NCBI GenBank assembly: GCA_050257395.1
Contig: JBLMWU010000214.1
Coordinates: 3,606 to 67,605 of the forward strand
DNA from: Gemmatimonadota bacterium
GTDB lineage: Bacteria > Actinomycetota > Actinomycetes > Streptosporangiales > Streptosporangiaceae
Direction of reading: 5' to 3'
Length of the DNA stretch: 64,000 nucleotides
Shown: positions 2,520 to 20,293 of the stretch, piece by piece
Layout of the letters: every line of letters begins with the position of its first letter
How positions within the stretch are numbered: position 1 is the first letter of the stretch
Translations under genes and position numbers: made by a program
Notes under the pieces: model-generated
What the model saw: the letters and a program-made list of their open reading frames with translations, nothing else
Database searches by the model: none
What the model was told of the DNA's origin: nothing

Positions 2520-4023
2520 GGCTCCCCGGTGCGTCGATCTCCAGTATCGGACCCATCAGTATGCCGCCCGGCTCGGCTGTGGCTTGCTCGGCGGGCGCGT
2601 GCTCGTCATGCGGGGCCGCGGGCATGGTCCACCGGGTGCCGCGCTGGCGGTGCAGGTAGGCGTAGTAGTAGGCGTACCCGGCGGCGAGCGCGCCGGCCGC
2701 GATGATCACCTGCCACGGGTTGGCGAGCCACAGCTCGTAGGTGACGTAGCCGAGGGCCGCGATCACGGCCACCGGCGCCAGCGGCCACCAGGGCATCCGG
2801 TAGCGGGCGTGGGCGGTCGTCCCGTTGCGGCGGCCGGCGATGGCCGACAGCGCCACGATCAGGTAGAGCGCGACCAGGGTCGCGCCGGTGGCCGTGATCA
2901 GCGCGTTCAGCGGGACGAGCGCGCCCACCACCGCCGCGGCCGCGCCGACCAGCAGGGTCGCGGTGACCGGTGTCTGCAGCCTCGGGTGCACGTAGGCCAG
3001 GGCCCTGCTGACCGCGTCCGGGTAGGCCCGGTCCCGCGCCGACCCGAACACGGTGCGCCCGGCCTGCAGGGTGATGGCGACCACCGCGTTGATGATCGCC
3101 AGCGCGATGCCCAGGCTCACGATCGTGTTCACGGCCGTGCCCGCGCGGGCGGTCACGAAGTACTGCATGGGCGCGGGGCTGCCGATCAGCCTGGCCAGGT
3201 CAGGGGCGCCCAGGATGACCGCGGTGGTGGGGATCAGCTCCGCCGCGACGGTGATCGCCAGCGACCACATGATGGCGCGGGCGATGCCGCGGGAGGCGTT
3301 GCGGGTCTCCTCCGCGAAGTACACGGCGGCGCCGTAGCCGTTGTAGGCGAAGATCGCGGTGGCGGTCTGCGCGGCGACCAGCCCGAGGCCGGCCGAGACC
3401 AGGGTGCCGCTGCCGCCCACGGCCTGCGCGTGGAACAGGGTTGTCACCGGCCTGGACACGTGGAAGACGCCCAGCAGGGTGAGCACCACCAGGGCCGCCA
3501 TCTCCAGCACCAGGAACGTCCCGGTCACCCAGGCGTTGGTGCGGATGTTCGCCACGGCGAGGATGGCGCACACCGCGATCACCGCGACCCCGGCCCACTT
3601 GGAGTCGGCGCCGGAGACCGCGGCGGCCAGGTACTGGCCGGTGCCCAGGGCGATGACGGCGATGATCAGGACCAGGCTCAGCGCGTTCATCAGGAACAGC
3701 GCGAAGCCGGTGCTCTTGCCGAGAACCCGGGCGGCGAAGGAGTACTCGCCGCCGGCGATCGGGAACGCCGACGACAGCTCGGCGTAGCAGAAGGCCATGA
3801 AGATCCCGACCACCGCGGCCGCGGTGAAGGCCAGGAACGACGCTCCGCCGATGGCCGCCAGCACGGCCGGGATGATGATGAACACGCTGGAAGCGGGCGT
3901 CACCGATGACAGCGTGATGAGGACGTTGCCGCGCAGCGACAGCGAGCGGGACAGCTCCTGCGGGTACTGTTCGGCGGCCGGGCCGGCCGGGGCCGGCGCG
4001 GGCAGCGGGTGGTCAGCGCTCAT
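2503..4023 (-). CDS. APC-superfamily amino acid permease
   Basis: 506 aa, about 12 predicted hydrophobic helices. The GNVLITLSSVTPASSVF...AFCYAELSSAFPIAGGEYSFA signature matches amino acid/polyamine/organocation permeases. It overlaps the DmpA gene by 17 nt, so the two form an operon. Confidence 0.85.
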   Translation of the reverse strand: MSADHPLPAPAPAGPAAEQYPQELSRSLSLRGNVLITLSSVTPASSVFIIIPAVLAAIGGASFLAFTAAAVVGIFMAFCYAELSSAFPIAGGEYSFAARVLGKSTGFALFLMNALSLVLIIAVIALGTGQYLAAAVSGADSKWAGVAVIAVCAILAVANIRTNAWVTGTFLVLEMAALVVLTLLGVFHVSRPVTTLFHAQAVGGSGTLVSAGLGLVAAQTATAIFAYNGYGAAVYFAEETRNASRGIARAIMWSLAITVAAELIPTTAVILGAPDLARLIGSPAPMQYFVTARAGTAVNTIVSLGIALAIINAVVAITLQAGRTVFGSARDRAYPDAVSRALAYVHPRLQTPVTATLLVGAAAAVVGALVPLNALITATGATLVALYLIVALSAIAGRRNGTTAHARYRMPWWPLAPVAVIAALGYVTYELWLANPWQVIIAAGALAAGYAYYYAYLHRQRGTRWTMPAAPHDEHAPAEQATAEPGGILMGPILEIDAPGSHESAH

Positions 4024-4043
4024 GGCTTCCTCGTCCTGCCGAA

Positions 4044-4070
4044 GTTATTTGTCGATACATTCGACGAATA
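4044..4070. promoter_or_regulatory. Near-perfect inverted repeat TTATTTGTCGA-tacat-TCGACGAATAA in the TetR/permease divergent intergenic region (candidate TetR operator)
   Basis: Seen directly. 10/11 matching arms in an AT-rich patch between divergent genes. Confidence 0.45.
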
Positions 4071-4164
4071 ACGTCTCGCCTGTCAAGGGCGGCAGCGGTA
4101 CCTTTTTCCCGTCGGGCGCAGCGGATGGCGCTGCGCCCCGCCCCCGGCCCGGAGGTCCGTCCCC

Positions 4165-4779
4165 ATGCCCAGGCAGCGTGACCAGGCTGCTCGCCGCAAG
4201 CACCTGCTGGAAGCCGCCGTGCAGGTCATCAACGACCGCGGCCCGTCCCGGATGCAGATGAAGGACGTCGCGGACGTGGCCGGGATGGCGACCGGGTCGG
4301 TGTACTACTACTACGACAACATCGACGAGATCCTGCGGCACGTGCACGCCATGGCGTTCGACCGCTACTACACCGCCCGGGTGGAGGCGGTCGCCGGTCT
4401 CACCGATCCGCGCGACAAGATCCGCACCATGGTGGACATGGGCCTGCCCCGGCCCGAGGACCGGGCCCTGTCCCTGGCCCTCTACCAGGTCATGGTGGCC
4501 AAGGCCCGCGACCCCCAGCACGCCGAGATCATCACCGGCCTGTGCGGCGAGCAGCGGCGCCTCTACCAGGACCTGCTGGACGAGGGCACCGCGGCCGGCC
4601 ACTTCCGGCCCATCATCTCCACCAGGAGCATCGCGGAGAACCTGATCTCCCTGGAGGACGGCTACGGCCTGGGCCTCGCCACCGGCAACCACGACTATGA
4701 CTACAGCCAGGCGCGGCACCTGGTCCTGGAGGCCGCAGCGCAGTGGACGCGGTGCCCGGAACTGCTGGCTGAACGCTGA
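4165..4779 (+). CDS. TetR/AcrR-family transcriptional regulator
   Basis: N-terminal HTH RKHLLEAAVQVINDRGPSRMQMKDVADVAGMATGSVYYYY is a typical TetR_N domain. It is divergent from the permease-DmpA operon. Confidence 0.85.
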   Translation: MPRQRDQAARRKHLLEAAVQVINDRGPSRMQMKDVADVAGMATGSVYYYYDNIDEILRHVHAMAFDRYYTARVEAVAGLTDPRDKIRTMVDMGLPRPEDRALSLALYQVMVAKARDPQHAEIITGLCGEQRRLYQDLLDEGTAAGHFRPIISTRSIAENLISLEDGYGLGLATGNHDYDYSQARHLVLEAAAQWTRCPELLAER

Positions 4780-4831
4780 CCGGTAATCCGGGCGCAGGAC
4801 CTGTCCTTTAGGGCGGGGGCAGCCCCGACGG

Positions 4832-5283
4832 TCAGGCCGGATGCTGCTGCTGCTCGATGTACTGGCGGATGATGCTCAGCGGGGTACCGGTGCATGAGGC
4901 GGCGAAGTAGGACGTGGACCAGAAGTGCCCGTGCATGCTTGCGCGGTTCACCTGGCTGGTGAATTCAGTTCGCAGCTTGCGGGCCGACGCGCCCTTGAGG
5001 GAGTTCATCAGCGCGGACACGGCGAACTTCGGCGGGTACTCGGTCAGGCGCATGTGGGCTCCCCGTTGACCTCCTGCAGTTCCCGCGCCGGAGTCTGCGC
5101 AGGCCTTCCGCATCGCGGCCTCGCAGCAGGAAGCATGGCGTCATCAAGTACGCCGCGCCGGTATTTCGTCACGATGACCAAGTGAACATCCAAGGCAGGA
5201 AACACGTGTCTGCCATGCGTGCAGTAACCGCCGGATGTCGTAGGCCAATGACATGCTGGCTTGGTGCGGCAGGTGAGGTACAC
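4832..5283 (-). pseudogene. tnpA: IS200/IS605 TnpA (Y1 HUH transposase), disrupted by a frameshift
   Basis: The N-terminal motif VHLVIVTKYRRGVLDD is in one frame (ORF 5044..5283). The C-terminal part PPKFAVSALMNSLKGASARKL...HFWSTSYFAASCTGTPLSIIRQYIEQQ is in another (ORF 4832..5113). The HUH position reads AHMRL (H-M-R), suggesting degeneration. Confidence 0.55.
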
Positions 5284-6421
5284 CTACAGGCTCCGCGTGT
5301 CGGCCACCGCCGAACGCGCACTGCGTGCCGAGTGGGATAGGTGCCGGTGGGTGTGGAACCAGTGTGTTGCCGAGTCACGCCAGGCATGGAGGGAACAGCG
5401 CGCGTGCGGCCCGGCTGGCCTGGACAAGATGCTCACGGGCTGGCGCGCGGAGCACGGCTGGCTGCGCGAGGGGTCGTCTGTCGCGCAGAAGCAGGCGATC
5501 CGCGACTTCGGCAAGAGCCGGGCAAAGGCGCTCAAGGACCGCAAGAACAAGATCCCGGTACCCCAGCGCGCGGGTCTGCCGCAGTTCCGCAAGCGCGACC
5601 GGTCCGCGCCGACGATGAACTACACGAAGCAGGGGTTCTCGCTCCGCCACGGCCGCCTGATTGTCGCTGGCGGGATCTCGCTGCGCGTCGTCTGGTCCCG
5701 CGCGCTGCCGTCGGTGCCGAGTTCGGTTCGCGTCTGCCAGGACTCGCTAGGGCACTGGTATGCATCGTTCGTCGTCCAGGCCGGGCCCGAGCCCCTGCCG
5801 GAAACCGGCAAGGCGATCGGCATCGACTGGGGCGTGACGGACATCGCGATCACCACCAGCGGCGAGCACGACCTCCCGCACCCTGAGTTCGCGAAAAAGT
5901 CCGCCGCGAAGCTGGCGAAATACCAGCGTCAGATGGCCCGCCGCAAGCCGCACAAAGGCAAGCCCGCGTCGGCTGGATACAAGCGCGCCAGGCGTCAGGC
6001 TGCGAAGGTGCACGCCAAGGCCGCCGCCCAGCGGCAGGACACCTCTCGCAAGTGGGCGAAGAAGGTCGTCCGGGACTTCGATCAGGTCGCCGCCGAGGAC
6101 TTCCGCCCGAAGTTCCTGGCGAAGTCCGCGATGGCCCGCAAGGCAGCCGACGCGGCCATCGGGTCGGCCAAGTCAGGCCTGCTGGAGATGGCAGCCAAAC
6201 ACGGCCGGATCGTCCATCTCGTGCACCCAGCCCACACAACCACCGATTGCAGCGCCTGCGGCGCGAGAGCCAAGCAACGCCTGCCGCTGTCGCAGAGAAC
6301 ATACACATGCAGCTCATGCGGCACCGTCCTGCCCAGGGACAAGAACAGCGCCGCCGTGATGCTCACCAGGGCTGGTCTCACCCCTGCTGGTGCTGATCGG
6401 ATAAGACCCCATGCGGCGTAG
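5261..6421 (+). CDS. tnpB: TnpB (IS605 OrfB-family RNA-guided endonuclease), apparently intact
   Basis: 386 aa. RuvC-I IGIDWGV, RuvC-II VAAEDF, zinc finger CSACG...CSSCG and RuvC-III LPRDKNSAAVM are all present. Confidence 0.85.
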   Translation: MVRQVRYTYRLRVSATAERALRAEWDRCRWVWNQCVAESRQAWREQRACGPAGLDKMLTGWRAEHGWLREGSSVAQKQAIRDFGKSRAKALKDRKNKIPVPQRAGLPQFRKRDRSAPTMNYTKQGFSLRHGRLIVAGGISLRVVWSRALPSVPSSVRVCQDSLGHWYASFVVQAGPEPLPETGKAIGIDWGVTDIAITTSGEHDLPHPEFAKKSAAKLAKYQRQMARRKPHKGKPASAGYKRARRQAAKVHAKAAAQRQDTSRKWAKKVVRDFDQVAAEDFRPKFLAKSAMARKAADAAIGSAKSGLLEMAAKHGRIVHLVHPAHTTTDCSACGARAKQRLPLSQRTYTCSSCGTVLPRDKNSAAVMLTRAGLTPAGADRIRPHAA

Positions 6422-6490
6422 CCGCAAGGGGCGCCGTGAGCCAGAAATCCCCGTCATTCACCGCGGGGAGGACGTCAAAGCGAACCCGGT
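6290..6490 (+). ncRNA. Putative omega/right-end RNA region of the TnpB element (3' end of tnpB plus the right-end hairpin)
   Basis: Inference from established TnpB biology: omegaRNA derives from the 3' end of tnpB and the right end. A right-end hairpin is seen at about 6458-6479. No covariance model was run. Confidence 0.25.
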
Positions 6491-6526
6491 TACCACCGGC
6501 GCGGGCTGATCGGGCAGGCTGGGGGC

Positions 6527-7357
6527 ATGCCAGAGCCCCTGACCCTGATGGCCGTGCACGCGCACCCCGACGACGAATCCTCCAGCACCGGCGGGGTGCT
6601 GGCCACCTACGCCGCCCAGGGCATCCGCACCGTGGTCGTGACCTGCACCAACGGTGAGTTCGGGGACGCGCCGGGCGGCGTCAAGCCGGGCCAGGACGGC
6701 CACGAGGCCGAGGCGGTGGCGCAGCTGCGGCTGGCCGAGCTGCGCACCGCCACCGGCATCCTCGGCGTCACCGACGTGGAGGTGCTGGGATACCACGACT
6801 CCGGGATGCCCGACTGGGACTACAAGGACCGGCCCGAGGCGTTCTGCAACATCCCGATGACCGAGGTGACCGGCCGGATCAGCGCACTGATGGAGAAGTA
6901 CCGGCCGCAGGTCGTGGTCAGCTACGACACCAAGGGCCCATACCAGCACCCCGACCACGTGCGGGCAGGCGAGGCCGCCGCGATCGCGGCGGCCGATTCC
7001 GGCATCCCGGCCAAGTTCTACCTGACCGCCATGCGCGGCAGCGACTGGCAGAAGGTCTGGGAGGCGCTGCGGGAGCTCGGCGCGGACGTACCGGGCCCGC
7101 GGGACATCACGGACGAGATGCGCCAGCAGATGGCCGAGCTGGAGGCCCGGATCACCACCACCGTGGACATCCGGCCGGTGCTGGCCCGCAAGCGCGAGGC
7201 CCTGCTGGCGCATGCCAGCCAGATCGCCGAGTCCTGGTTCACCAAGATCCCGCCGGAGATCGCCGAGTCCGCGTTCGGCCGGGAGAGCTTCATCCGGGCC
7301 AGCGACAGCACCGGCGCCCCGGTGCCCGAGGATGACCTGTTCGCTGGCCTGCGCTGA
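6527..7357 (+). CDS. PIG-L/LmbE-family deacetylase (mycothiol S-conjugate amidase Mca / MshB-like)
   Basis: 276 aa. The AVHAHPDDESSSTGG zinc-binding motif and the HPDH motif are present. Size and motifs match Mca/MshB. Confidence 0.75.
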   Translation: MPEPLTLMAVHAHPDDESSSTGGVLATYAAQGIRTVVVTCTNGEFGDAPGGVKPGQDGHEAEAVAQLRLAELRTATGILGVTDVEVLGYHDSGMPDWDYKDRPEAFCNIPMTEVTGRISALMEKYRPQVVVSYDTKGPYQHPDHVRAGEAAAIAAADSGIPAKFYLTAMRGSDWQKVWEALRELGADVPGPRDITDEMRQQMAELEARITTTVDIRPVLARKREALLAHASQIAESWFTKIPPEIAESAFGRESFIRASDSTGAPVPEDDLFAGLR

Positions 7358-7663: not shown

Positions 7664-7957
7664 TCAGGCCCGCGGCCGCCGGCGGGGCGGCGCGGGCGGC
7701 ACCGGCTTGCCGGCCAGCGCGCGGTCCCGCGGGATGGTCACCAGCTCGCCGGAGGCGCGGCGGACGCTGAACGAACCCTCGTCAGCGGCCTCCAGCATCC
7801 CCAGCACGTCGGCGACCTCGTCGCCGCCGTCCCGGCCCGGGCGGCGCCAGCGGATCACCACCCGGCTGCCCACGTCCGCGGCGGTCAGCCGCACCTCCAT
7901 CCGGTACCGCAGCGCGCCCGGCCTGCCCGGCTGCGGAACCCGGGCGGAGTCGTTCAC
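7664..7957 (-). CDS. Hypothetical protein (likely start at the internal MEVRL)
   Basis: ORF with protein-like composition; no known motif. Confidence 0.35.
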   Translation of the reverse strand: MNDSARVPQPGRPGALRYRMEVRLTAADVGSRVVIRWRRPGRDGGDEVADVLGMLEAADEGSFSVRRASGELVTIPRDRALAGKPVPPAPPRRRPRA

Positions 7958-8159: not shown

Positions 8160-8690
8160 GTGATGACCGTGCTGAGCCAGGCACCCGGGCACGGGGAACC
8201 AGCCCGGCTGACCGGCCTGCCCGAAGGGCCACCGTGGACGCTTGCCGATGAGCACGTGCTCCTGCTGCGGCAGATCACCTCGCGGGCACGGGACGTGCTG
8301 GCCGCGGCCACGGACGGCCAGTGGCCAGCCGCCGAGCTGGCGTCGCTGGCCGGCTATGCCCGGGCGGAGCTGCTGCGGCAGGCCGCTGAGGAAGAGGCAC
8401 TGCTGTTCCCGGCCAGCCCGCCGCCCATCACCGCCCGGCTCGCCCGGGACCACGTACGGCTGCGGGCTGTCACTGATCTGCTGACCCGGGCGGCTGCCGG
8501 GGAGCAGAGCCTGTCCCCCGGCCAGCTCGCGGTGGCCACCAGGGATTTCGTGGACCAGCTCGAATATCACCTGAGTGCCGAGGAGAAGCTGCTCGCAGCG
8601 GGTCAGGCTCCGCGCAGCGTGCCAGCCATCGCCTCGCTCGCAGCCGGGCAGCTGGCCACGTCAGGACCATCGGCCCGTGCCGGAGCATGA
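8160..8690 (+). CDS. Hemerythrin-like (HHE cation-binding) domain protein
   Basis: Recurrent His/Glu spacing (DEHVLLLRQI, AELLRQAAEEEALLFP, ARDHVRLRAV, DQLEYHLSAEEKLL) is consistent with the hemerythrin HHE fold. Confidence 0.5.
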   Translation: MMTVLSQAPGHGEPARLTGLPEGPPWTLADEHVLLLRQITSRARDVLAAATDGQWPAAELASLAGYARAELLRQAAEEEALLFPASPPPITARLARDHVRLRAVTDLLTRAAAGEQSLSPGQLAVATRDFVDQLEYHLSAEEKLLAAGQAPRSVPAIASLAAGQLATSGPSARAGA

Positions 8691-8741
8691 GTTTCCGGGG
8701 CAGCCTGGCATCGTCAGTGGTGCGCAGCGGGAGGGGTAATC

Positions 8742-9278
8742 ATGGCACCGCACTGCGATTCGATGGACGGCCCGGTCGTCACAGCTGCCCGGCAAGCCCT
8801 GGAGCGCCAGGACGTCAGCATCGTGCTCCCGTTCGTCAGGAAGGACGGCGAGGAGGAGGTAACCCGCGCGTTCGAGGCCGCCGGGAAGGCCCGCCGGCAG
8901 GGGGCTGACGCCCGGGAAGTCGCTGACCTCTACTTCTTCGAGACCGTGGTCCGCGTCCACCGGGCCGGGGAGGGCGCGCCCTATACCGGGCTGAAACCAG
9001 CCGGGCTGGCAGAAGGGCCCGTCATCCCGGCTGCCGAGCTGGGCATCGAGAGCGGCAGCCCGGACCAGCTCAAGGACCTGCTCGCCCGGCATGTCCGGGA
9101 CGAGATTCAGCGCCGGTTCGATCACGTGATGGCGCTGAAACCCGCGGCGGGCCAGGACGTGGAGCACGCACGCGAGTACGTCGAAGCCATGCTCGGGCTG
9201 GAGGTCTGGGCCAGCAGCCTCTATCAGGCGGTCCTGGCGCCCGCGCATGCAGGCCACGGCGGGCACCAGCACAGCTGA
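8742..9278 (+). CDS. Conserved hypothetical protein (N-terminal MAPHCDSMDGPVV, C-terminal His-rich tail HAGHGGHQHS)
   Basis: 178-aa ORF with good protein composition. Possible metal-binding tail. Family not recognised. Confidence 0.5.
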   Translation: MAPHCDSMDGPVVTAARQALERQDVSIVLPFVRKDGEEEVTRAFEAAGKARRQGADAREVADLYFFETVVRVHRAGEGAPYTGLKPAGLAEGPVIPAAELGIESGSPDQLKDLLARHVRDEIQRRFDHVMALKPAAGQDVEHAREYVEAMLGLEVWASSLYQAVLAPAHAGHGGHQHS

Positions 9279-9324
9279 CTGCCCTTCCGCGCGTGGCTGG
9301 CGGCACGGCGCGGCGGCGGATTCC

Positions 9325-10137
9325 CTACGAGTCCCAGCGGCCGGCCAATTCGGCGGTGAGGGCGGGCCAGACCACCGGGTCGTGGCCTGGCACCAGCCGG
9401 TAGCCGCCGGCTGCGGCGAGCTGCTTGAGCTTGCGGATCTGCGCCACGCTCACCTCCGGCGGGGCATCGACCCGGCCGCCGACCGCCACCTCGCGCTCGA
9501 TGTTCTCGGTGAGGTCGGCGGCGTCGAAGGCGAACACGAAGCCGCCGCCGCCCACCGACTCGTCCAGCGACACCACGAAGCTCTGATGCCCGGGCGTGTG
9601 GCCGGCGGTGAGCACGGCGGTCACCCCTGGCGCGATCCCGGTGTCCCCGTCCGCGATGCGCCAGTCGATCCGGGGGTCGTCGAAGTCGACCCGGAAGATC
9701 CCGTCGCGCTCCGGCGCGGGCGGGGCGGACATGCCGAAGTCCAGCTCGGCCCGCTGGATGTGCACCGGCACCCGGCCGGCGAAATGCTTGAGCCCGCCCG
9801 CGTGGTCGTTGTGCAGGTGGCTGACGGCGACCGCGCGGACGTCCGCCAGCGCGATCCCGGCCTCTGCCAGCGCCTCCTCCAGCGGCTCCCCCGGGCCGGG
9901 CAGCACCGGCTGGATCAGCGGGTCGCCGTGGAAACGCGCCCGCAGCGCGGGGTCGCGGATGAGCGCGGTGTTGAACCCGGTGTCCAGCAGCACCCAGCCG
10001 CCGTCGCACTGCAGCAGCACCCCGGGCACCGGCTCGCGCAGCATCTCGGTGCCGGACGCGCCCTCTACCGACACGGACTTCGGGAGGTCCTCCCAGCCCA
10101 GCGTGAGCAGCACGATCCGGCGCACCCCGGTTCCCAT
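9325..10137 (-). CDS. MBL-fold metallo-hydrolase, AiiA-like N-acyl homoserine lactonase family
   Basis: The HLHNDHAGG motif (HxHxDH) plus downstream His/Asp residues (TAGHTPGH, VPGHD) are present. Confidence 0.8.
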   Translation of the reverse strand: MGTGVRRIVLLTLGWEDLPKSVSVEGASGTEMLREPVPGVLLQCDGGWVLLDTGFNTALIRDPALRARFHGDPLIQPVLPGPGEPLEEALAEAGIALADVRAVAVSHLHNDHAGGLKHFAGRVPVHIQRAELDFGMSAPPAPERDGIFRVDFDDPRIDWRIADGDTGIAPGVTAVLTAGHTPGHQSFVVSLDESVGGGGFVFAFDAADLTENIEREVAVGGRVDAPPEVSVAQIRKLKQLAAAGGYRLVPGHDPVVWPALTAELAGRWDS

Positions 10138-10255
10138 GACCCGCCTCCTTCGCGGCCGGCCGCCCCGCCCGGTGCGGGACGGCCGGCGCTGCGCTCCGGT
10201 CTCCAGCGGACCTTAGCGCCTGCCGGAGGGCGCGCAGGGGCTGCGGGAGCCCGGG

Positions 10256-11083
10256 TCAGTTGCTGCTGAGCCAGGTGACGCTGAACTTCCCCCCGCCGCT
10301 CAGGCCGGACACGCTGTCCTTGGCCTGGCCGCTGCTGTTGGTCATGACAATCTTCGTCGGGTGGTAGTGACCGATGTAGTTGCCGTCCACCTTCGCACTG
10401 GTGAAGTGCACCGTCCCGAAGTCGGCCAGCGGGAGCACGCCCAGGGTCGAGGACGGCGCCTCGGCGATCACCTCGGCGGAGGCGTTGCTCGCCCCGGTCA
10501 GGGTGGCCTGGATCGCGTGCCGCCAGCCGCGGGTGGTGTCCGCCAGCACCAGCGTGTAGTGACCGCTGCCGTGGTAGGCGACCGACGCGCTGAAGTGGTC
10601 ACCGGGGCGCACCTTGTTGCTGAAGTTCACCGGGTACGACGGGTACATCTCATACCAGGAGTAGTACTGGGCGCTGCCGCCGGAGCAGTCCACCTCGCTG
10701 CCGGTCTGCTCGACCGTGCTGCTGCCGTAGCCGTCCAGCCCCACCCAGAAACTGGAGTACTCGCTGCCGGTGCTGCCCGAGCACATGCCCTTCGGCTCCA
10801 CCCAGTTCGCCGACACCTTGGTGTAGTGACCCCCGGACGCGGCGTACCCGGACCAGTTGGTGGAACTGACGGCGTGCGCGAGCGGCGCGAAGCCGCTGCT
10901 GCCCGGCCTGATCAGGTGGGCGACCGGCCGGATCAGCCGCAGCAGCCCCGGTTGCCCGGAATGCCGCGCGCCGGGCGCGTGCGCCGCGGCGGGCACCGCG
11001 GCCGCACCCGCGGCGCCGGCGGTGGCGATTAAGCCGGTCAGCAGGCTCACACCAGCGAGGGATAGGCACCATCTGCGTAGCAT
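10256..11083 (-). CDS. Secreted peptidase G1 (eqolisin / 'peptidase A4') family glutamic peptidase, paralog 1
   Basis: Signal peptide MLRRWCLSLAGVSLLTGLIATAGAAGA. NWSGY...FWVGLDGY...VEQTG holds the catalytic Gln and AEVIAEAP the catalytic Glu, matching the scytalidoglutamic peptidase fold. RBS GAGGAG 4 nt before the ATG at 11083. Confidence 0.75.
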   Translation of the reverse strand: MLRRWCLSLAGVSLLTGLIATAGAAGAAAVPAAAHAPGARHSGQPGLLRLIRPVAHLIRPGSSGFAPLAHAVSSTNWSGYAASGGHYTKVSANWVEPKGMCSGSTGSEYSSFWVGLDGYGSSTVEQTGSEVDCSGGSAQYYSWYEMYPSYPVNFSNKVRPGDHFSASVAYHGSGHYTLVLADTTRGWRHAIQATLTGASNASAEVIAEAPSSTLGVLPLADFGTVHFTSAKVDGNYIGHYHPTKIVMTNSSGQAKDSVSGLSGGGKFSVTWLSSN

Positions 11084-11268
11084 GCGGCTCCTCATCGGGA
11101 CGTGCTGATGACGGGCGACGCCGGCGGCGCCTCCCCCTTGCGCCGGGTGATACCTGCCGTCGTGCTGCTGCGTTAGGTCATCGCGGCAGCACGATAGGTG
11201 ATGACGATTATCGGGCATAGCCGGGCAGAGCCGTGGCAGATCTGAAAAGCCCGTCCCGGCCCGGCTCG

Positions 11269-12105
11269 TCAGGTACTGCGCAGCCAGGTGGCGCTGAAGT
11301 TCTGGCCGCCGCTCAGGGCCGACACGGTGTCCTTGGCCCGCCCGGCGCTGTCCACCATGGTGATCTCCGCCGGGCTGGCGTTGCCGATGGGCGACCCGTT
11401 CACCGTGGCAGCGGAGAAGTTCACGGTGCCGAAGTCGGTCAGCGGCAGCACGCCCCCGGAGGAGGAGGGAGCTTCCGCGATCACCTCGGCCGAGGAGTTG
11501 GCGGCCCCGTGCAGGGTCGCGCTGACGATGTGGCTCCAGCCCTGGGTGGCGTCGGTCAGCGTCAGCGTGTAGCTGCCGCCGCCGTTGTAGGTGACCGAGC
11601 CGGTGAAGTGGTCTCCCGGCCGCACCGGGTTGCTGAAGTTCACCGGGTAGGCCGGGTACATCTCATACCAGGAGTAGTACTGGGCCCTGCCACCGGAGCA
11701 GTCCACCTCGCTGCCGCTCTGCTCGACCGTGCTGCTGCTGTAGCCGTCCAGGCCGACCCAGAAGCTCGAATACTGGCTGCCGCTGGAGCAGGTGCCGGTG
11801 GGTTCCACCCAGCTGGCTGAGACCTTGGTGAACGTGCCGCCGGACGCCGCGTACCCGGACCAGTTCGTTGACGTGGCGTTCGTCAGCGGCCGGGCCGCGG
11901 CCGGCCGGGCGGCGCCCGGGGCGGCCGGCCCCACCTGCACGCCGGGGCGTATCAGCCGGGCGGCGGGCCGGACGAGGCCGGCCGTCCCTGGCCTGGCCGG
12001 CCGGGGCGCCGCCGCCGCGGCCGTGGCACAGGCCAGCGAGCTCGCGAGCAGGACAGCGCCGGTCCCCAGCTGAACGCACCTTCTCCATAACATCCGGGCT
12101 CCCAT
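11269..12105 (-). CDS. Secreted peptidase G1 family glutamic peptidase, paralog 2
   Basis: Same motifs (NWSGYAASGG, FWVGLDGY, VEQSG, AEVIAEAPSS) and a signal peptide. Confidence 0.75.
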   Translation of the reverse strand: MGARMLWRRCVQLGTGAVLLASSLACATAAAAAPRPARPGTAGLVRPAARLIRPGVQVGPAAPGAARPAAARPLTNATSTNWSGYAASGGTFTKVSASWVEPTGTCSSGSQYSSFWVGLDGYSSSTVEQSGSEVDCSGGRAQYYSWYEMYPAYPVNFSNPVRPGDHFTGSVTYNGGGSYTLTLTDATQGWSHIVSATLHGAANSSAEVIAEAPSSSGGVLPLTDFGTVNFSAATVNGSPIGNASPAEITMVDSAGRAKDTVSALSGGQNFSATWLRST

Positions 12106-12269
12106 GAGGATGGTCGGGGCGGCGCGGCGCTGCCGCCGCTATGGCCGCCATAAGCGAAGGGTCATCGAGACCGTACGATACGTAATATTAATTGCTAAAC
12201 AATGAACTGGTAAAGCTCTGGTAGATCCCTTAGCTCGCGGCCGTCCCGGAGGGCACGGCAGGCGCCGGG

Positions 12270-13133
12270 TCAGCCGCTGCGCAGCCAGGTAGCGGTGAAA
12301 TTCCGTCCCCGGCGCAGCGGGGACACCTTGTCCTTGGCCTGCCCCGTCTCGTTCACCATGATGATCCGGACCGGGCTGAGCCTGCCGACAGCCGTGCCGT
12401 CCGCCCGCGCGCCGCTGAACCGGGCGGTCCCGAAGTCCGCCAGCGGCAGCACCCCGAGGCCCGACGACGGCGCCTCCGCGATCACCTCGGCCGAGGAGTC
12501 CGCCGCACCGGTCAGCAGCGCGCTGACCGTGCGCCGCCAGCCGCGGCTGATGTCCGCCAGGATCAGCGTGTAGCGGCCGCGGCCCCGGGCGGTGACCGAC
12601 GCGGCGAAGCGGTCACCGGGCCGCACCCGGTTGCGGAAGTAGACCGGGAACGCGGGATACATCTCGTACCAGGCCTCGTAGTGGGCCCTGGTGCCGATGC
12701 AGTCCACCTCGGTTCCGGTCTGCTCGACCGTGCTGCTGCTGTAGCCGTCCAGGCCCACCCAGAAGCTCGAGTACTGGTCGCCGCCGGTGCAGGTGCCATG
12801 CGGCTCCACCCACCTGGCCGACACCCTGGTGAATCTGCGGCCCGCCGCCGCGTAGCCGGACCAGTTGGCGGAGCCCACCACCCGGGGCCGCGGCGGGCCG
12901 GCCGCGGCCCGGCTGGCCGGGCGGCCGCCCGGCGCGCGCGGCCCCCCGGGCTGGATCCCACCCACCTGGCCGCGCGGGGCCGGGCCGGGCCGGCCGGGCG
13001 GGGCCCCGGCCCGCGCCGCGGCAGGCGCGGCGGCCGCCGCGGGCACCAGCACACCCGCGATGAAGCCGGCCCCGGCCACCGGCAGGCAGCAGCGCCGGAC
13101 AGTCATCAGGAACCCACGCTCCGTAATCTTCAT
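12270..13133 (-). CDS. Secreted peptidase G1 family glutamic peptidase, paralog 3 (start may be the internal MTVRR)
   Basis: Same motifs (NWSGYAAAGR, FWVGLDGY, VEQTG, AEVIAEAPSS) and a signal peptide. Confidence 0.7.
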   Translation of the reverse strand: MKITERGFLMTVRRCCLPVAGAGFIAGVLVPAAAAAPAAARAGAPPGRPGPAPRGQVGGIQPGGPRAPGGRPASRAAAGPPRPRVVGSANWSGYAAAGRRFTRVSARWVEPHGTCTGGDQYSSFWVGLDGYSSSTVEQTGTEVDCIGTRAHYEAWYEMYPAFPVYFRNRVRPGDRFAASVTARGRGRYTLILADISRGWRRTVSALLTGAADSSAEVIAEAPSSGLGVLPLADFGTARFSGARADGTAVGRLSPVRIIMVNETGQAKDKVSPLRRGRNFTATWLRSG

Positions 13134-13170
13134 AGGCGATCGTCTGCCTCCCGGTTGACGGGGCGGAGGG

Positions 13171-13724
13171 TCAGCCGCTGGTGGCTTCCGGCGCGGGGCG
13201 CATCCATCCGGTCTCGCCCGGCTGCCGGGCGCTGGTGCCCTGCCCGGGGACAGCGTCCAGCGCGGTGCCTGCCACGATGGTGTCCGAGATGCTGCGGAGC
13301 AGGGACCGGACGGTCGCCGACGCCGCCCGGTGCAGCACCATCCGGTCGATGCCCGACCCCACGGCGGCCAGCGGCGGCCGGTAAGCGCCGGTGAAGGTCA
13401 GCCGGGTGCGGCCGTCGTCAGCCGGGGTCAGCATCAGGTTCGCGTCCAGCACGGGGAAGAGCCTGCCCATGACCCCGGTGGCCTCCCACCGCAGCGGCAG
13501 GACCATCGAGTCCTCCCGCGGGATCGGGTCCAGCAGGCGCACCCGCACCAGCTTGGAAGCGCCGATCACGTCGCCGAAGGGCCCGACCCGCGCCAGGCCG
13601 ACGAGCCCGTCCGCGTACGCCTGGCCCGAGGCATCCCGCAGCCAGCCGCCGTGAGCGAGCGCCGCCAGACCCGCCCGGGCAGCCGGAAAGCTGACCCGGA
13701 GCATGGTGTCATGGCTCACGAACA
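13171..13724 (-). CDS. Hypothetical protein
   Basis: Protein-like ORF. The 5' extension in the ORF track overlaps the ABC gene, so I trimmed to MFVSHDTM. Confidence 0.4.
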
Positions 13725-13813
13725 TGCAGCCAGTCAGCCACCTGCAAGTCCCGCCCGCCAGGGGACCAAGGTCCCGTACCGGACGGCAATGGTCTCCTGC
13801 CTCCTGGCTGCTG

Positions 13814-16450
13814 TCAGCCGTACTTGCGGCCAGGGCCCTGCCGGTGCAGCCGCCACCAGGCCACGATCGCGAACGCCACGCCGAGCGCCAGCAGCGCACA
13901 CATGTCCAGGGCCCAGGCATGGAGCGTGTGGTTCCACAGCGGGTCGGTGGGGTTGCCGGGCGCCGGGGGCGTCAGCTTGTTCAGGGTCGACGTGGACGCG
14001 GTGGCGGCGAATCCCCATCGCGACGGCGACAGCCAGGACACCTGTTCCAGCCCGGCCTTGCCCGCGATGCTGAACACGCCGCCGGTGAGGATCACCTCCA
14101 CCACCACCAGCACCATCAGCAGCGGCATCGTCTTCTCGGACGTGTTGACCGAGGCGGAGATGACCAGCCCGAGCGCCATCGACACGACCGCCAGCAGGCC
14201 GATCGCCAGGATCAGCTCGACCAGCGGCAGCGCCTTGACCACCGACCCGCTGTGCGGCATCTTGCGGCCGATCAGCCCGATCAGCACCATCACCCCGGCC
14301 TGCAGCCCGCTGATGAACCCGAGCACCGCCAGCTTGGAACCGAGGTAGGCGGCGGGCGACAGCCCGGCTGCCCGCTCCCGGCTGTAGATGGAGCGCTCCT
14401 TGACCAGTTCCCGGACCGAGTTGAAGGCACCGGCGAAGCACGCGCTGATGATCAGGATGAGCAGCAGCGACGTGGCGGCGGGGTTGGTGCCGGTCACCGC
14501 GGCCGCCGCGTGCGCGGCCGCGCTCGGGGCGGCGGATGCGTGGGCGCCGTGCGTGGCGGCCGCGTGCGCGGCGTGCGTGGCGGTGGCGTGCGCCCCGTGG
14601 CTGGCGGCCGCGTGCGCCCCATGAGTCGCCTTGCCCCCGTGCGCCGGGCTGGGTCCGGGGGACGGGCCGTGCCGTGCGCCGGCTGGCACCGGCCCGGGTG
14701 CCAGCCCGTTCTTATCGGGCAGGACGAGGATCACCCCGCCGAGCACGACCGGCGCGCCGGCCAGCAGGCCGAGGAACACCCGGTCGGACGAGATCACCGC
14801 CAGGTACCGCCGGCACAAGGTGCTGAACTGGGAGAGCTTGTTCTTGGACGACGGCGGCGGGGGCGGCGTGCCCCGCTGCGCCTGGCCTGCCGCCCGGCCT
14901 TCCATGGCCGCCGCGACGTACTGGGTGTACCAGCGTGACTGCCGGTACTCCGCCTGCCAGTCCCGGCTGGGCTCGTTGTCGAAGGCCTGGAAGACCTCGG
15001 CCCAGCCCGGCTTGTTGAAGTGCTTGAGGCCCTCGCTGGGCGGGCCGAAGTAGGCGATCTTCCCGCCGGGCACCAGCACCAGCAGCCGGTCACAGATGTC
15101 GAGGTTGGCGACGCTGTGGGTGACCACGATGACGGTGCGCCCGTCGTGGGCCAGGCCCGCCATCATCTCCATGACCGACTTGTCCAGGCCGGGGTCCAGG
15201 CCGGAGGTCGGCTCGTCGAGGAACAGCAGCGACGGCTTGGTCATCAGCTCCAGTGCCACGTTGACCCGCTTCTGCTGGCCGCCGGACAGCCGGTCGGTGC
15301 GGGTCTCGGCGTGCGCCTTCAGCGAGAGCTCCTCCAGCACCTCGTCCACCCGGTGGTAGCGCTCGGCCTTGCTGGTGTCCTTGGGGAAGCGGAGCTCGGC
15401 GGCGTAGCGCAGGGCGCGGCGGGCGGTCAGCTGGGTGTGCAGGATGTTCTCCTGCGGCACCAGGCCGATCCGGTGCCGCAGCTCGGCGTAGTGGGTGTAC
15501 AGGTCGCGGTTGTCGTACAGGACCGACCCGTCGGTGGCCGGCCGCATCCCGGTCAGCGCGCCCAGCAGGGTGGACTTGCCCGCGCCGCTGGGGCCGATGA
15601 TGCCCAGCAGGCAGCGCTCGCCCAGCGGGAAGCTCACGTGGTCCAGCAGCACCTTGCCGCTGGGCAGCCGCACCGACAGGTCCCTGGCCGCCAGGGACAC
15701 GTCGCCGGTGTCGATGAACTCCTGCAGCTCCTGGCCGACCAGATGGAAGGTCGACGAGCCGACACCGACGATGTCGCCTTCGGACAGCGGCGCGGCGCTG
15801 ATGCGCTGGCCGTTGACGAACGTGCCGTTGTAGCTGTCCAGGTCGACGATCTGGTACATGCCGCCGAGGTTCCGCAGCTCCGCGTGGTGCCGCGAGACAC
15901 CGAGGTCGTTGACCACGATGTCGTTGTCCGGCGACCGGCCGATGCGCAGCACCTTGGCGGGCAGCGGGCGCACCACGCTGGGCTCACGCGGCGGCGCCAG
16001 CGACACCGAGGGCGGCCGGAGCGCACCGCCGGGCGGGGCGGCGGCGCCGTCCCCGCCCATCGGGCTCATGCCGCCGGCCGGGCTCACCGCGATCTGCGTC
16101 GGCGGCCGGGCCGGCTTCCCGGCCCCGGTGACAGTGCAGGTCAGCACCGGCCCGTCAGCCGGATGGCCCAGCCGGACCAGGCACTCCCCGCTGATCTCCA
16201 TGCGGTTCACCCGCTGGGTGCCGGCGTAGGTGCCGTTGGTGCTGCCATTGTCGGTAAGGACCCACCGGCCGTCTTCGAGCCGGAGGAAGGCGTGCTGCCA
16301 CGACACCCGGGTGTCGTCCAGCACGATGTCAGCGTCCGGATCGCGGCCGATCACGTACGAAGGGCCAGCGGCCAGGCTTCGGTCAGATCCCTGGGAACGG
16401 ACCACCAGCGGTGGTGCGGACCCCCCCGAAAGGGACTTCTCGGTCTCCAC
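13814..16450 (-). CDS. FHA-FHA-ABC transporter (two N-terminal forkhead-associated domains, ABC ATPase, C-terminal ABC-2 permease); Rv1747-like architecture
   Basis: FHA 1 is YVIGRDPDADIVLDDTRVSWQHAFL...NGSTNGTY. FHA 2 is LRIGRSPDNDIVVNDLGVSRHHAEL...SYNGTFVNG. Walker A GPSGAGKST and signature LSGGQQKR are present. Six C-terminal TM helices follow a His/Ala-repeat linker. Confidence 0.85.
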   Translation of the reverse strand: METEKSLSGGSAPPLVVRSQGSDRSLAAGPSYVIGRDPDADIVLDDTRVSWQHAFLRLEDGRWVLTDNGSTNGTYAGTQRVNRMEISGECLVRLGHPADGPVLTCTVTGAGKPARPPTQIAVSPAGGMSPMGGDGAAAPPGGALRPPSVSLAPPREPSVVRPLPAKVLRIGRSPDNDIVVNDLGVSRHHAELRNLGGMYQIVDLDSYNGTFVNGQRISAAPLSEGDIVGVGSSTFHLVGQELQEFIDTGDVSLAARDLSVRLPSGKVLLDHVSFPLGERCLLGIIGPSGAGKSTLLGALTGMRPATDGSVLYDNRDLYTHYAELRHRIGLVPQENILHTQLTARRALRYAAELRFPKDTSKAERYHRVDEVLEELSLKAHAETRTDRLSGGQQKRVNVALELMTKPSLLFLDEPTSGLDPGLDKSVMEMMAGLAHDGRTVIVVTHSVANLDICDRLLVLVPGGKIAYFGPPSEGLKHFNKPGWAEVFQAFDNEPSRDWQAEYRQSRWYTQYVAAAMEGRAAGQAQRGTPPPPPSSKNKLSQFSTLCRRYLAVISSDRVFLGLLAGAPVVLGGVILVLPDKNGLAPGPVPAGARHGPSPGPSPAHGGKATHGAHAAASHGAHATATHAAHAAATHGAHASAAPSAAAHAAAAVTGTNPAATSLLLILIISACFAGAFNSVRELVKERSIYSRERAAGLSPAAYLGSKLAVLGFISGLQAGVMVLIGLIGRKMPHSGSVVKALPLVELILAIGLLAVVSMALGLVISASVNTSEKTMPLLMVLVVVEVILTGGVFSIAGKAGLEQVSWLSPSRWGFAATASTSTLNKLTPPAPGNPTDPLWNHTLHAWALDMCALLALGVAFAIVAWWRLHRQGPGRKYG

Positions 16451-19555: not shown

Positions 19556-20293
19556 GTGAGCGGCGACCGGACGCGCCCGATGCCGGCGCCGGGCCAGTAC
19601 CCGGTGTATCAGCCGGCCGCGGTGAGACGGCGCAGCCGCTGGCCCTTCGTCGTCCTCGGCGTCGTCGTGCTGCTGCTCCTGCTGCTGGTCGGGGCGGACC
19701 GGGCGGCGGCCGCGTACGCGGGCAGCCAGGCCGCCCAGCAGATGAAGACGCAGGGGTTCCCGGGGAACCCGGACGTGACGATGGAGGGTTTCCCGTTCCT
19801 CACCCAGGTGGCGGCCCGGAACCTGCAGGACGTGCACGTCACCGCGAACAACGTGCAGGAGGGGCCGGTCAGCCTGAGCCTGAGCGGCGATGCGTACGGG
19901 GTGCGGCTCAATCCCGGCTACCAGAGCGGCACGATCACCCGGGTCAGGGGCACCGTCCTGATCGGCTTCGGCAGCGTGGCCGGCATCGCGCGCAACGCGG
20001 GCGCGTCGGGCGTGACGGCGTCGGCCGACGGCCCGAACCGGATCAAGTTCAAGGTGGACATGGCGGTCTTCAGCACCACCGTGATCGCGTCGGTCACCAA
20101 GACCGGCCCGAGCACCGTCCAGTTCCACGTCATCTCGGCGGGCGGGCTGCCCGCGTCGCTGCTGGGCTCGTTCGGCAACATGACCTTCACCATCCCGAAG
20201 CTGCCCTACGGCCTGACGGTGCAGAGCCTGAGCGTCACCAGCCAGGGCATCGTCGGCCACCTGACCGCCCGCAACATCCCGTTCAGCCAGTAA
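19556..20293 (+). CDS. DUF2993 (LmeA-like) membrane-anchored protein
   Basis: N-terminal TM FVVLGVVVLLLLLLVG followed by a VTMEGFPFLTQVAARNLQDVHVTA-type segment characteristic of DUF2993/LmeA. Confidence 0.6.
   Translation: MSGDRTRPMPAPGQYPVYQPAAVRRRSRWPFVVLGVVVLLLLLLVGADRAAAAYAGSQAAQQMKTQGFPGNPDVTMEGFPFLTQVAARNLQDVHVTANNVQEGPVSLSLSGDAYGVRLNPGYQSGTITRVRGTVLIGFGSVAGIARNAGASGVTASADGPNRIKFKVDMAVFSTTVIASVTKTGPSTVQFHVISAGGLPASLLGSFGNMTFTIPKLPYGLTVQSLSVTSQGIVGHLTARNIPFSQ

Follow-up and report, generated by a model that had tools for sequence, protein, structure and literature searches.

A tandem array of three predicted secreted G1 glutamic peptidases with diverged charge in a probable acid-soil actinomycete

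The G1 peptidase locus and its relatives

The window, by which we mean the whole stretch of 64,000 nucleotides that was analysed, contains three neighbouring genes, g1, g2 and g3, which were the only G1-like sequences found in it by tblastn. Their longest open reading frames lie on the minus strand and span 10256-11218, 11269-12105 and 12270-13133, respectively. The likeliest starts were placed at 11083, 12093 and 13106 because of the position of the Shine-Dalgarno sequence and the N-terminus MLRRWC that is found throughout the family. For g1 (10256..11083, minus strand), the ATG at 11083 is preceded by GAGGAG and opens the family-like sequence MLRRWCLSL of a protein of 275 residues. The genes g2 (11269..12093, minus strand) and g3 (12270..13106, minus strand) then encode 274 and 278 residues. 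The initial annotation had described three co-oriented tandem genes, and all three frames were indeed found to belong to the Pfam family PF01828; its lengths of 276-287 residues were slightly off. The 278-residue product of g3 is identical to the NCBI protein MGE5134834.1. The NCBI call for g2 (P0008) is truncated to 179 residues, and an exact look-up of P0008 returned no record. Both g3 and g2 already carry the correct public name 'G1 family glutamic endopeptidase'.

The array is flanked by two conserved neighbours. Downstream, the gene at 9325..10137 (minus strand) encodes a metallo-beta-lactamase-fold (MBL) hydrolase (PF00753, E 7e-18), which is named 'N-acyl homoserine lactonase family protein' at NCBI. 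Upstream lies orf13171 (13171..13725, minus strand) with about 184 residues and no confident Pfam family, its best match being a weak one to SRPBCC/Polyketide_cyc2 (E 0.08). In about 22 GTDB loci a single G1 gene is directly followed by the same MBL gene (77-84% identical to that of the window, tblastn), which marks the syntenic locus. An orf13171 homologue was observed directly upstream in 3 of these loci; in most of the remainder it lay some 5 kb further up.

Relatives of the three proteins are numerous. Each paralogue matched more than 5,500-6,400 clusters at 90% identity, of which the named ones are from actinomycete metagenome-assembled genomes (MAGs), and a profile search returned 6,840 clusters at 50% identity with E<=1e-10. 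Relatives are encoded in 487 stretches of GTDB species genomes. Their sources are MAGs of palsa, bog, SPRUCE peat and soil, and also acidophilic Streptacidiphilus and Kitasatospora. Actinobacterial homologues had already been listed for Catenulispora acidiphila, Amycolatopsis and, with two copies, Renibacterium (PMC3009609). The G1 family is common in acid-soil actinomycetes, and the earlier statement that it is mainly fungal and patchy in bacteria is outdated. The contig label 'Gemmatimonadota' is probably a binning error, and the host is likely to be an acid-soil actinomycete of the Streptosporangiales kind.

Family membership, fold and predicted export

The search with PF01828 (Peptidase_A4) gave E-values of 5e-32 for g1, 4e-33 for g2 and 1e-29 for g3, with scores of 104-115 bits at a cut-off of 22.3 bits, and covered the profile from positions 1-2 through 191-195 of 206. 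None of the three proteins was matched by a model of NCBIfam. The Gln motif reads VEQTG in g1 and g3 and VEQSG in g2, and the Glu motif AEVIAEAP is common to all of them. HMMER alignments to 1s2b_A and 1y43_B placed the Gln of VEQ[ST]G on Gln53 of scytalidopepsin B (SGP) and on Gln24 of the heavy chain of aspergillopepsin II (AGP), and the second Glu of AEVIAEAP on Glu136 and Glu110, respectively. This dyad is invariant in 75/75 homologues and in all paralogue groups, and Asp43, Trp67, Glu69 and Tyr71 (SGP numbering) are also kept in g1, g2 and g3. Both the eqolisin-type membership and the retained Gln/Glu dyad of the initial annotation were confirmed in this way. The structure was modelled with AF2 for g2 alone, with g1 and g3 sharing 64-72% identity with g2 or with one another. 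The g2 model is all-beta with a pLDDT above 90 in the catalytic domain, and its best Foldseek matches in the PDB were SGP (2ifw_A, E 2e-13, TM 0.84) and AGP (1y43_B, TM 0.85). By their sequence, g1-g3 are MEROPS G1 (eqolisin-type) glutamic peptidases, and the model predicts this fold for g2. The array is an ordinary member of a known and annotated enzyme family, and the known mechanism of the family is left unchanged.

Besides the beta-sandwich and the active site residues, SGP (MEROPS G1; PDB 1S2B, 2IFW) shares a pre-pro organisation, in which about 55 residues precede a mature N-terminus that lies shortly before NW(S/G)G, as described in a study on fungal eqolisins (PMC6154417). The identity to SGP is, however, only about 24%. 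The actinobacterial proteins are without the disulphide Cys47-Cys127, have two other invariant cysteines and a C-loop that is one residue shorter, and carry Glu and not Leu at position 52 beside the catalytic Gln. SGP has a pI of about 4 with 3 Lys+Arg, whereas g1 is near-neutral and g3 is basic. AGP (PDB 1Y43, 3TRS) was the best PDB sequence match of the family profile (E 2e-16) at about 25% identity. In AGP an intervening peptide is excised to give two mature chains; no sign of such a maturation was seen in g1-g3.

The predicted layout of the proteins is an N-terminal export signal, a pro-segment of about 45-50 residues and, as the catalytic domain, a beta-sandwich of some 200 residues. Inspection of the sequences showed a positive n-region of the MLRRWC type, a hydrophobic core of about 18-20 residues and an Ala-rich c-region, which agrees with the secretion signals that had been annotated. 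In g1-g3, a basic stretch of about 45-50 residues lies between the signal region and NWSGY. The pre-pro architecture is conserved across the family, with RR within the first 25 residues in 159/177 proteins. The pro-regions contain 4-8 Lys/Arg and zero Asp/Glu, and in the g2 model the pro-segment, which may dock as an inhibitor, is disordered (pLDDT <50). As had been noted before, the divergence is concentrated in this part of the proteins: the paralogues are 37-52% identical before the catalytic domain and 64-72% inside it. Still, a motif is conserved there, namely two LIRPG-like copies that g1 and g2 share with the majority of the family; the pro-region of g3 has no clear LIRPG motifs. From these features, g1-g3 are likely to be secreted as zymogens, by either the Sec or the Tat route. 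We also considered g2 as a lipoprotein, since SSLA-C22 fits a loose PROSITE-type lipobox. This was rejected because the cysteine is not conserved: the g2-type orthologues P0002, P0003, P0006 and P0007 have Ser in its place, and neither g1 nor g3 has it.

By analogy with SGP, AGP and pepG1 of Alicyclobacillus, the pro-segment would be cut off autocatalytically at low pH after export. The Glu would act as a general base on water, and the Gln amide would polarise the scissile carbonyl and stabilise the oxyanion. The expected outcome is a pepstatin-insensitive endoproteolysis at about pH 2-5, and the peptides set free could supply the organism with nitrogen and carbon in acid soil. PepG1 of Alicyclobacillus sp. 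DSM 15716, which was called the first bacterial G1 peptidase to be characterised, has a pH optimum of about 3 and is pepstatin-insensitive (PMC3009609). This bacterial G1 enzyme is secreted, consists of a single domain and has both a signal peptide and a pro-region, and it gives the functional expectation for g1-g3. It is, however, a single gene in a different phylum, and no tandem set with partitioned charge has been described there. The bacterial G1 orthologues are 25-35% identical to each other (PMC3009609). As acid proteases that resist pepstatin, G1 peptidases are both in use and under study, and their biochemistry in the literature that we searched is almost all fungal plus this one bacterial enzyme; for actinobacterial G1 peptidases the search returned no enzymology, secretion or expression data and no arrays.

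Age and conservation of the three copies

The initial annotation had proposed a recent duplication, probably for dosage or substrate diversification. In the case of dosage, the three genes would be young and redundant copies that raise the output of secreted protease; their tandem, co-oriented arrangement is in line with this, and so is the homology of the sequences upstream of g1 and of g2. The paralogues have, however, just 70-74% nucleotide identity and 64-72% amino acid identity in the catalytic domain, with a dN of 0.20-0.28. Conserved substitutions and charge are specific to each lineage, and g1 and g3 group with their positional orthologues on the related metagenome contig L083 before they group with each other, g1 also with a copy on L082 (bootstrap 93% for g1 and 80% for g3). 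A recent amplification is largely refuted by these data and is very improbable.

The number of copies was determined in the relatives. A single G1 gene was found in 77/80 loci. L083 carries three copies that are arranged as in the window, and the two-gene contigs L081 and L082 have the g1 and g2 types and are without a g3-type copy. The orthologues of g1 were P0099 (98%), P0129-P0132 and L082b/L083c, and in the neighbour-joining tree the core clade of g1 had a bootstrap of 93%. The orthologues of g3 were L083a/P0168, P0154 and P0169, with 80% for the clade, and the grouping of g1 with g3 had 93%. g2 is the copy that is closest to the single-copy syntenic orthologues. As the monophyly of the g2 type (33%) and of all three types together (41%) is poorly supported, the number and the order of the duplications are not firm. 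In the scenario that we propose, a single ancestral G1 gene between orf13171 and the MBL gene would have duplicated twice, with a first split of the g2 type from the g1/g3 ancestor and a second split of g1 from g3. Both duplications would predate the divergence of the window organism from the L083 organism. The positional orthology of g1 and g3 is observed, and the array most probably consists of old, separately conserved copies and not of a recent dosage amplification.

The pairwise comparison that had been suggested at the outset was carried out and gave the domain identities and dN values cited above; the dN/dS ratios between positional orthologues (NG86) were 0.18-0.38 and are rough because dS is compressed by the GC3 of 93%. 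It is likely that g1, g2 and g3 are all maintained by purifying selection.

Gene conversion between the window paralogues was considered for the core of g1 and g2, which is 93-95% identical in nucleotides. This was rejected, since paralogue pairs from different genomes were equally similar there (0.89-0.91) and the codon identity at identical residues was about 0.8-0.9 in every comparison. No window-specific conversion tract was found between g1, g2 and g3, and the high identity of the core is explained by strong conservation and codon bias. Outside the window, the pair L081a/L081b looks converted, with identical codons at 37/37 positions.

Upstream regions, charge and possible roles

The spacer between g3 and g2 (12094..12269, minus strand, 176 nt) contains a conserved, ancestral promoter-like block of TACCAGAGCTTTACC, 18 nt and TAATAT, and also a CGTACGGTCTCG box. 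The g2 leader is about 90 nt long and has a GGGAG ribosome-binding site. The block was seen by comparative alignment only, in which the g2-type block is kept upstream of single-copy orthologues in many genomes. In the alignments, the 185-nt spacer between g2 and g1 (11084..11268, minus strand) matched the ancestral G1 upstream region as a homologue in degenerate form, and it is kept among g1-type orthologues. In the 64-nt gap between orf13171 and g3 (13107..13170, minus strand) no homologue of the block was found, and therefore g3 may be co-transcribed with orf13171. The annotated promoter region for each gene is thus supported for g2 and partly for g1, but not for g3. Judged from these upstream sequences, only g2 retains the ancestral promoter-like region, the region of g1 is remodelled and g3 is probably read through from the upstream gene. 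A scan of 9200-14000 for consensus promoters and terminators showed no sigma-70-like site or terminator above the thresholds. A structured regulatory RNA in the leaders was rejected: Rfam gave zero matches at E<=1 in 9000-14500, the folding of the window leaders was unremarkable against shuffles (z-scores -0.8 and +0.15), and covariation in the leaders of the relatives was limited to one hairpin of 5 bp.

The clearest difference between the copies is their charge. The predicted pI of the mature domain is 6.0 for g1, which is His-rich, 4.5 for g2 and 10.0 for g3 with 25 Lys+Arg. The same partition was observed within the lineages, with a pI of 5.8-8.8 for the His-rich g1 type (n=10), 4.4-4.8 for the g2 type (n=8) and 8.7-10.1 for the g3 type (n=4). 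Since 16% of the sampled family members have a pI >8, basic G1 domains also occur outside the array. Of the three copies, g3 alone deviates at the cleft positions 65 and 77, and these vary within the four g3-type sequences, which could reflect a relaxed constraint instead of a new specificity.

Of the three lineages, that of g3 has diverged most and is the rarest, and we asked how far g3, and possibly g1, might be drifting to loss of function, which would leave g2 as the one working enzyme beside decaying copies. The dN/dS of g3 exceeds that of the other copies (0.38 in the domain and 0.61 in the pro-region), and g3 has the fewest orthologues, a degenerate pro-motif, the variable cleft residues and no promoter block of its own; a copy of its type is missing in L081 and L082. 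Its frame, however, is intact with a GC3 of 94-95%, the dyad and every invariant family residue are retained and dN/dS is <1. In addition, the basic charge is found in 4/4 g3-type sequences with conserved Arg replacements, which looks directional and not random. We regard such a decay as unlikely.

The consistent partition of charge fits a long-standing specialisation of the three lineages, and the functional diversification proposed earlier is backed as the likely meaning. We regard it as probable, for the explanation as a whole, that the array encodes three secreted G1 zymogens of an acid-soil actinomycete, which are old, under purifying selection and diverged in surface charge, pro-segment sequence and regulation; from this divergence we infer a specialisation for substrate or niche. 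An expansion of G1 paralogues in organisms of low pH is also known from fungal eqolisins, with up to nine paralogues per genome in acid-secreting fungi, and their diversification was attributed to the substrate-binding positions 47/50/52/95/127 and 65/77/78/103 of SGP (available part of Stocchi et al. 2018, PMC6154417). In that part, the fungal paralogues are treated as phylogenetic clades and no tandem arrays are reported, whereas the window has a compact, ordered triple array whose copies differ most clearly in global charge.

The strong and conserved partition of charge might also point to roles beyond bulk nutrition. The basic g3 could bind to the negative cell envelope or to humic or clay surfaces, or one copy could act in the processing of other secreted proteins or against competitors, for example fungi. 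The link of g3 to a different upstream gene and the conserved MLRRWC N-terminus with its twin arginine would be compatible with this. However, the genes around the array include no evident inhibitor, immunity or target gene, and most relatives have a single gene of the same family. Such roles appear doubtful. Somewhat less remote, but still tentative, is an extension of the specialisation reading, in which a conserved set of acid proteases with partitioned charge, own pro-segments and own transcriptional wiring would serve differently charged soil matrices (humic acids, clays and cell walls) or a wider pH range, and a nutrient-responsive activator would act on the ancestral promoter, in which TTACC motifs recur with a phase of about 11 nt.

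The locus draws attention to a large branch of the G1 family in actinobacteria that is uncharacterised and comprises thousands of sequence clusters, many of them from MAGs of peat and acid soil. This branch may have a share in the turnover of protein and the mineralisation of nitrogen at low pH. With isoforms of predicted pI of about 4.5, 6 and 10 in one genome, the array offers a natural comparison of how charge affects activity, stability and sorption.

Three tandem G1 peptidase genes

Within 10256-13133, three minus-strand open reading frames of 320, 278 and 287 codons were found, namely g1 (10256-11218), g2 (11269-12105) and g3 (12270-13133), in a locus with a GC content of ~0.71-0.74. Their codon-position GC was like that of real genes (GC3 0.90-0.95), and tblastn returned g1, g2 and g3 as the only G1-like copies in the whole window. 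PF01828 (Peptidase_A4) was matched over essentially the whole profile by g1 (E 5e-32), g2 (4e-33) and g3 (1e-29); the NCBIfam models gave no match for g1, g2 or g3. AEVIAEAP was present in all three proteins, together with VEQTG in g1 and g3 and VEQSG in g2. The reading frames, the PF01828 matches and the motifs confirm the tandem of three co-oriented G1 genes proposed in the initial annotation.

The catalytic residues were located by HMMER alignment to aspergilloglutamic peptidase (AGP, 1Y43_B) and scytalidoglutamic peptidase (SGP, 1S2B_A). The Gln of VEQ[ST]G aligned to Gln24 of the AGP heavy chain and Gln53 of SGP, and the second Glu of AEVIAEAP to AGP Glu110 and SGP Glu136. This dyad, whose retention had been claimed, did not vary across 75 aligned homologues; Asp43, Trp67, Glu69 and Tyr71 (SGP numbering) were retained as well. 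An AlphaFold2 model of g2, built from the same alignment, was all-beta with a pLDDT >90 in the catalytic domain, and its top PDB matches were SGP (2ifw_A, E 2e-13, TM 0.84) and AGP (1y43_B, TM 0.85). The fungal enzymes have a Cys47-Cys127 disulphide (positions as in PMC6154417), whereas the array proteins are without it. Their loop preceding the catalytic Gln is shorter by one residue, the fungal Leu52 is replaced by an invariant Glu, and two other Cys are invariant. Of the features of MEROPS G1 and PF01828, the profile match and the dyad were found in g1-g3 and the fold in the g2 model, and two of the three genes already carry a G1-family name at NCBI. We read the array as G1 family with products that are secreted, as predicted from their export signals; in these two respects the earlier reading is supported.

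The starts were placed by the family N-terminus and the position of the ribosome-binding site in relatives, where AGGAGG lies at a good distance before the ATG of MLRRW. On the minus strand they fall at 11083 for g1 (275 aa, GAGGAG 4 nt upstream), 12093 for g2 (274 aa, GGGAG upstream) and 13106 for g3 (278 aa, identical to NCBI MGE5134834.1), so that the lengths of 276-287 aa first given were near but inexact. The NCBI product for g2 (P0008, 179 aa) starts at VEPTG. Because this product lacks signal peptide, pro-region and first beta-strand, its start call is almost certainly wrong; the full 274-aa frame (11269-12093) agrees with the family N-terminus.

The N-terminus was highly uniform, with RR in the first 25 residues of 159 of the 177 full-length homologues and RRWCIP in 100 of them. 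Such conservation of MLRRWCIP, an RR pair with a Cys, is unusual for a signal peptide. In the g1-g3 branch it may reflect a Tat signal or another constraint, and with the twin arginine export may be by Sec or by Tat. By inspection, g1-g3 have a predicted short positive n-region, a hydrophobic core of ~18-20 residues and an Ala-rich stretch. The predicted pro-region is ~45-50 residues long and contains 4-8 Lys/Arg but neither Asp nor Glu, and the mature N-terminus is predicted near S-T-N-W-S-G-Y in all three. A hydrophobic-(L/I/V)-R-P-(G/A) motif, e.g. LLRLIRPVAHLIRPG, occurs twice in the pro-region of g1, g2 and most family members; in g3-type proteins it is degenerate (GIQPGGP). As had been noted, divergence is concentrated before the domain, with 37-52% identity there versus 64-72% in the catalytic domain. 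Cys22 of g2 fits a loose lipobox, but a lipoprotein is unlikely because this residue is not conserved among g2 orthologues.

An expected course can be drawn from what PMC3009609 and PMC6154417 cite on the structures and mutagenesis of SGP and AGP, and from the biochemistry of pepG1 of Alicyclobacillus sp. DSM 15716 (PMC3009609). The g1-g3 products would be exported and would lose the basic pro-segment autocatalytically at low pH. The Glu would then activate water, and the Gln amide would assist the carbonyl and oxyanion during hydrolysis. The activity would be expected to be pepstatin-insensitive with an optimum near pH 3.

Charge and age of the copies

The clearest systematic difference between the copies is the predicted charge of the mature domain. 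When the window genes were taken together with others of their type, the predicted pI was 4.4-4.8 for the g2-type (n=8; window g2 4.5), 5.8-8.8 for the g1-type with 5-9 His (n=10; window g1 6.0) and 8.7-10.1 for the g3-type (n=4; window g3 10.0). A basic domain is not unique to g3, since 16% of the sampled family members have a pI >8. Relative to the main family, the g1-type carries Thr103->Lys, Gly217->Leu and Asn242->His (g2 positions), and conserved replacements in the g3-type include several Ser/His to Arg. SGP Asp65 and Asp77 are tied to substrate binding by Stocchi et al. (PMC6154417). Here window g3 has Glu/Tyr versus Tyr/Asn in g1 and g2; because these positions vary within the g3-type, they are weak evidence for a change in specificity.

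A neighbour-joining tree with 500 bootstrap replicates grouped the array copies by position. Window g1 formed a core clade with the last genes of the two-gene locus L082 and the three-copy metagenome contig L083 (bootstrap 93%), and the second gene of another two-gene locus, L081, joined only the broader g1-type clade (29%). g3 grouped with the first gene of L083 (80%), and g1-type and g3-type together formed a clade (93%). g2 was placed with middle or first genes and nearest to the single-copy orthologues; support was only 33% for g2-type monophyly and only 41% for the clade of all three types. The window paralogues showed a dN of 0.20-0.28 and a nucleotide identity of 70-74%. Between positional orthologues, the catalytic-domain dN/dS was 0.18-0.38 (NG86) and highest for g3, the ratios being rough because GC3 is ~93%. 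These distances, from the pairwise comparison proposed in the initial annotation, and the grouping by position do not support the recent duplication suggested there. As judged from the sequences, the array goes back to old duplications, has a conserved gene order (g3-g2-g1) and has retained each of its three copies; the suggested dosage effect is likewise unsupported.

Recent gene conversion between g1 and g2 in the window was rejected because their similar core is equally similar across genomes; the comparison points to constraint and codon bias. In L081, the tandem G1 genes at 3870-4697 and 4958-5779 have 37/37 identical codons in the catalytic core (96.7% nucleotide identity) and a codon identity of 0.79 elsewhere. 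This core is probably a gene-conversion tract, of which the window has no equivalent.

Upstream regions

The region upstream of single-copy orthologues was conserved in the comparative alignment across genomes whose proteins share only ~60-65% identity. It consists of a block, TACCAGAGCTTTACC, ~18 nt, TA(C/A)nnT, with a CGTAC..TC.CG box, a ~100-nt leader and a strong ribosome-binding site. The block was located in the window at 12094-12269 and 11084-11268 and also upstream of the G1 genes in the related loci L002-L012, L020, L025, L027 and L064. It is near-intact before g2 (TTTACC-18-TAATAT) and altered but recognisable before g1, where it is conserved among g1-type orthologues. g3 is separated by 64 nt from the upstream neighbour orf13171 and has no homologous block, so that the two may be co-transcribed. 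The proposal of an own promoter region for each gene therefore holds for g2, in part for g1 and not for g3.

A generic consensus scan of 9200-14000 gave no promoter or terminator at the thresholds used, an Rfam search of 9000-14500 gave no match, and the window leaders folded no better than shuffled sequence. In the leaders of relatives, the sole covarying element was a 5-bp hairpin with compensatory changes (CAGCA...TGCTG / CGGCA...TGCCG). Since the folding is ordinary, Rfam gave no match and covariation is confined to 5 bp, the block is probably a promoter or operator region and not an RNA element. An activator may bind here, as suggested by TTACC motifs that recur in phase every ~11 nt. By eye, a possible SD-occluding stem (CCTGCG...CGCAGG / CCTGCC...GGCAGG) was seen in relatives.

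Distribution, source and neighbourhood

Each paralogue had >5,500 90%-identity clusters at E<=1e-5 among 8,000 candidates scored. When 1.84 billion representatives at 50% identity were searched with a profile, 10,540 proteins were found at E<=1e-3, 6,840 at 1e-10 and 1,856 at 1e-30; in GTDB species genomes, relatives are encoded by 487 stretches. With relatives this abundant, the description as patchy in bacteria is outdated for this clade; homologues in Catenulispora acidiphila, Amycolatopsis and Renibacterium were already listed by Jensen et al. 2010 (PMC3009609). The best 80 of the 487 stretches were mostly soil and peat MAGs (palsa, bog, SPRUCE, Microflora Danica, SMAG) and included the cultured acidophilic genera Streptacidiphilus, Kitasatospora and Trebonia, a habitat compatible with an acid-active enzyme. 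For fungi, PMC6154417 already describes expanded sets of G1 paralogues that have diversified at low pH. Modestly new here are the compact array, whose gene order is conserved in an actinomycete lineage of acid soil, the predicted partition into acidic, neutral and basic copies, and the differing upstream regions.

When 80 related loci were compared, with 8 kb of flank per side where the contig allowed, one G1 gene was found in 77, two in 2 and three in 1 (L033). The paralogue number in relatives, raised in the initial annotation, is thus mostly one, and multi-copy arrays also occur (L033, L081-L083). About 22 single-copy loci are syntenic with the window. They have the same metallo-beta-lactamase-fold gene (MBL gene; window 9325-10137, minus strand) directly downstream and an orf13171 homologue, an FHA-ABC transporter and a Ser/Thr kinase upstream. 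Among metagenome contigs closer to the window, L081 and L082 each have two G1 genes behind the FHA-ABC transporter and the orf13171 homologue. In L083, three G1 genes are followed by PIG-L, TetR, amino-acid permease and S58 peptidase genes as in window 1341-7357. Arrays of 2-3 G1 genes from other family branches were seen in the acid-soil actinomycete MAG loci L033 (6039-8795), L050 and L061; these are independent, and tandem duplication of the G1 gene is, by this comparison, recurrent.

g3 and the lactamase-fold gene are exact matches to NCBI proteins of the 'Gemmatimonadota bacterium' MAG. The close relatives of the G1 genes and their neighbours all lie in Actinomycetes or Streptosporangiaceae MAGs (lactamase-fold protein 77-84% identity, kinase ~64-71%), and the window holds the actinobacterial hallmark genes LmeA (19556-20293), a Rv0428c-type SH3 domain (7664-7957) and a DUF5931 histidine kinase (20319-21458). 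Because of these relatives and their synteny, the hallmark genes and the GC content of ~73%, the label probably results from mis-binning and the window is probably actinobacterial (Actinomycetota).

Across the ~22 related genomes, the MBL gene, named 'N-acyl homoserine lactonase family protein' at NCBI, is much better conserved (77-84%) than the peptidase (~60-65%). Together with hemerythrin-domain and DUF6448 genes (8160-10137), it separates the array from the PIG-L region, a block missing in L083. orf13171 (13171-13725, minus strand; ~184 aa) has no confident family, with a weak SRPBCC/Polyketide_cyc2 match (E 0.08). Its homologues lie near G1 genes in relatives, directly upstream in L025, L027, L064 and L081-L083, and its longest reading frame would run into the end of the gene for the FHA-ABC transporter. 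An IS605-family OrfB/TnpB-like gene (5261-6421; OrfB_IS605 and Cas12f1-like TNB domain) lies between the TetR and PIG-L genes and is absent from the syntenic stretch of L083. The amino-acid permease gene (2503-4023) overlaps the Peptidase_S58/DmpA-like aminopeptidase gene (1341-2519). This pair is also found near the G1 array in L083 and may provide a downstream link to peptide or amino-acid utilisation.
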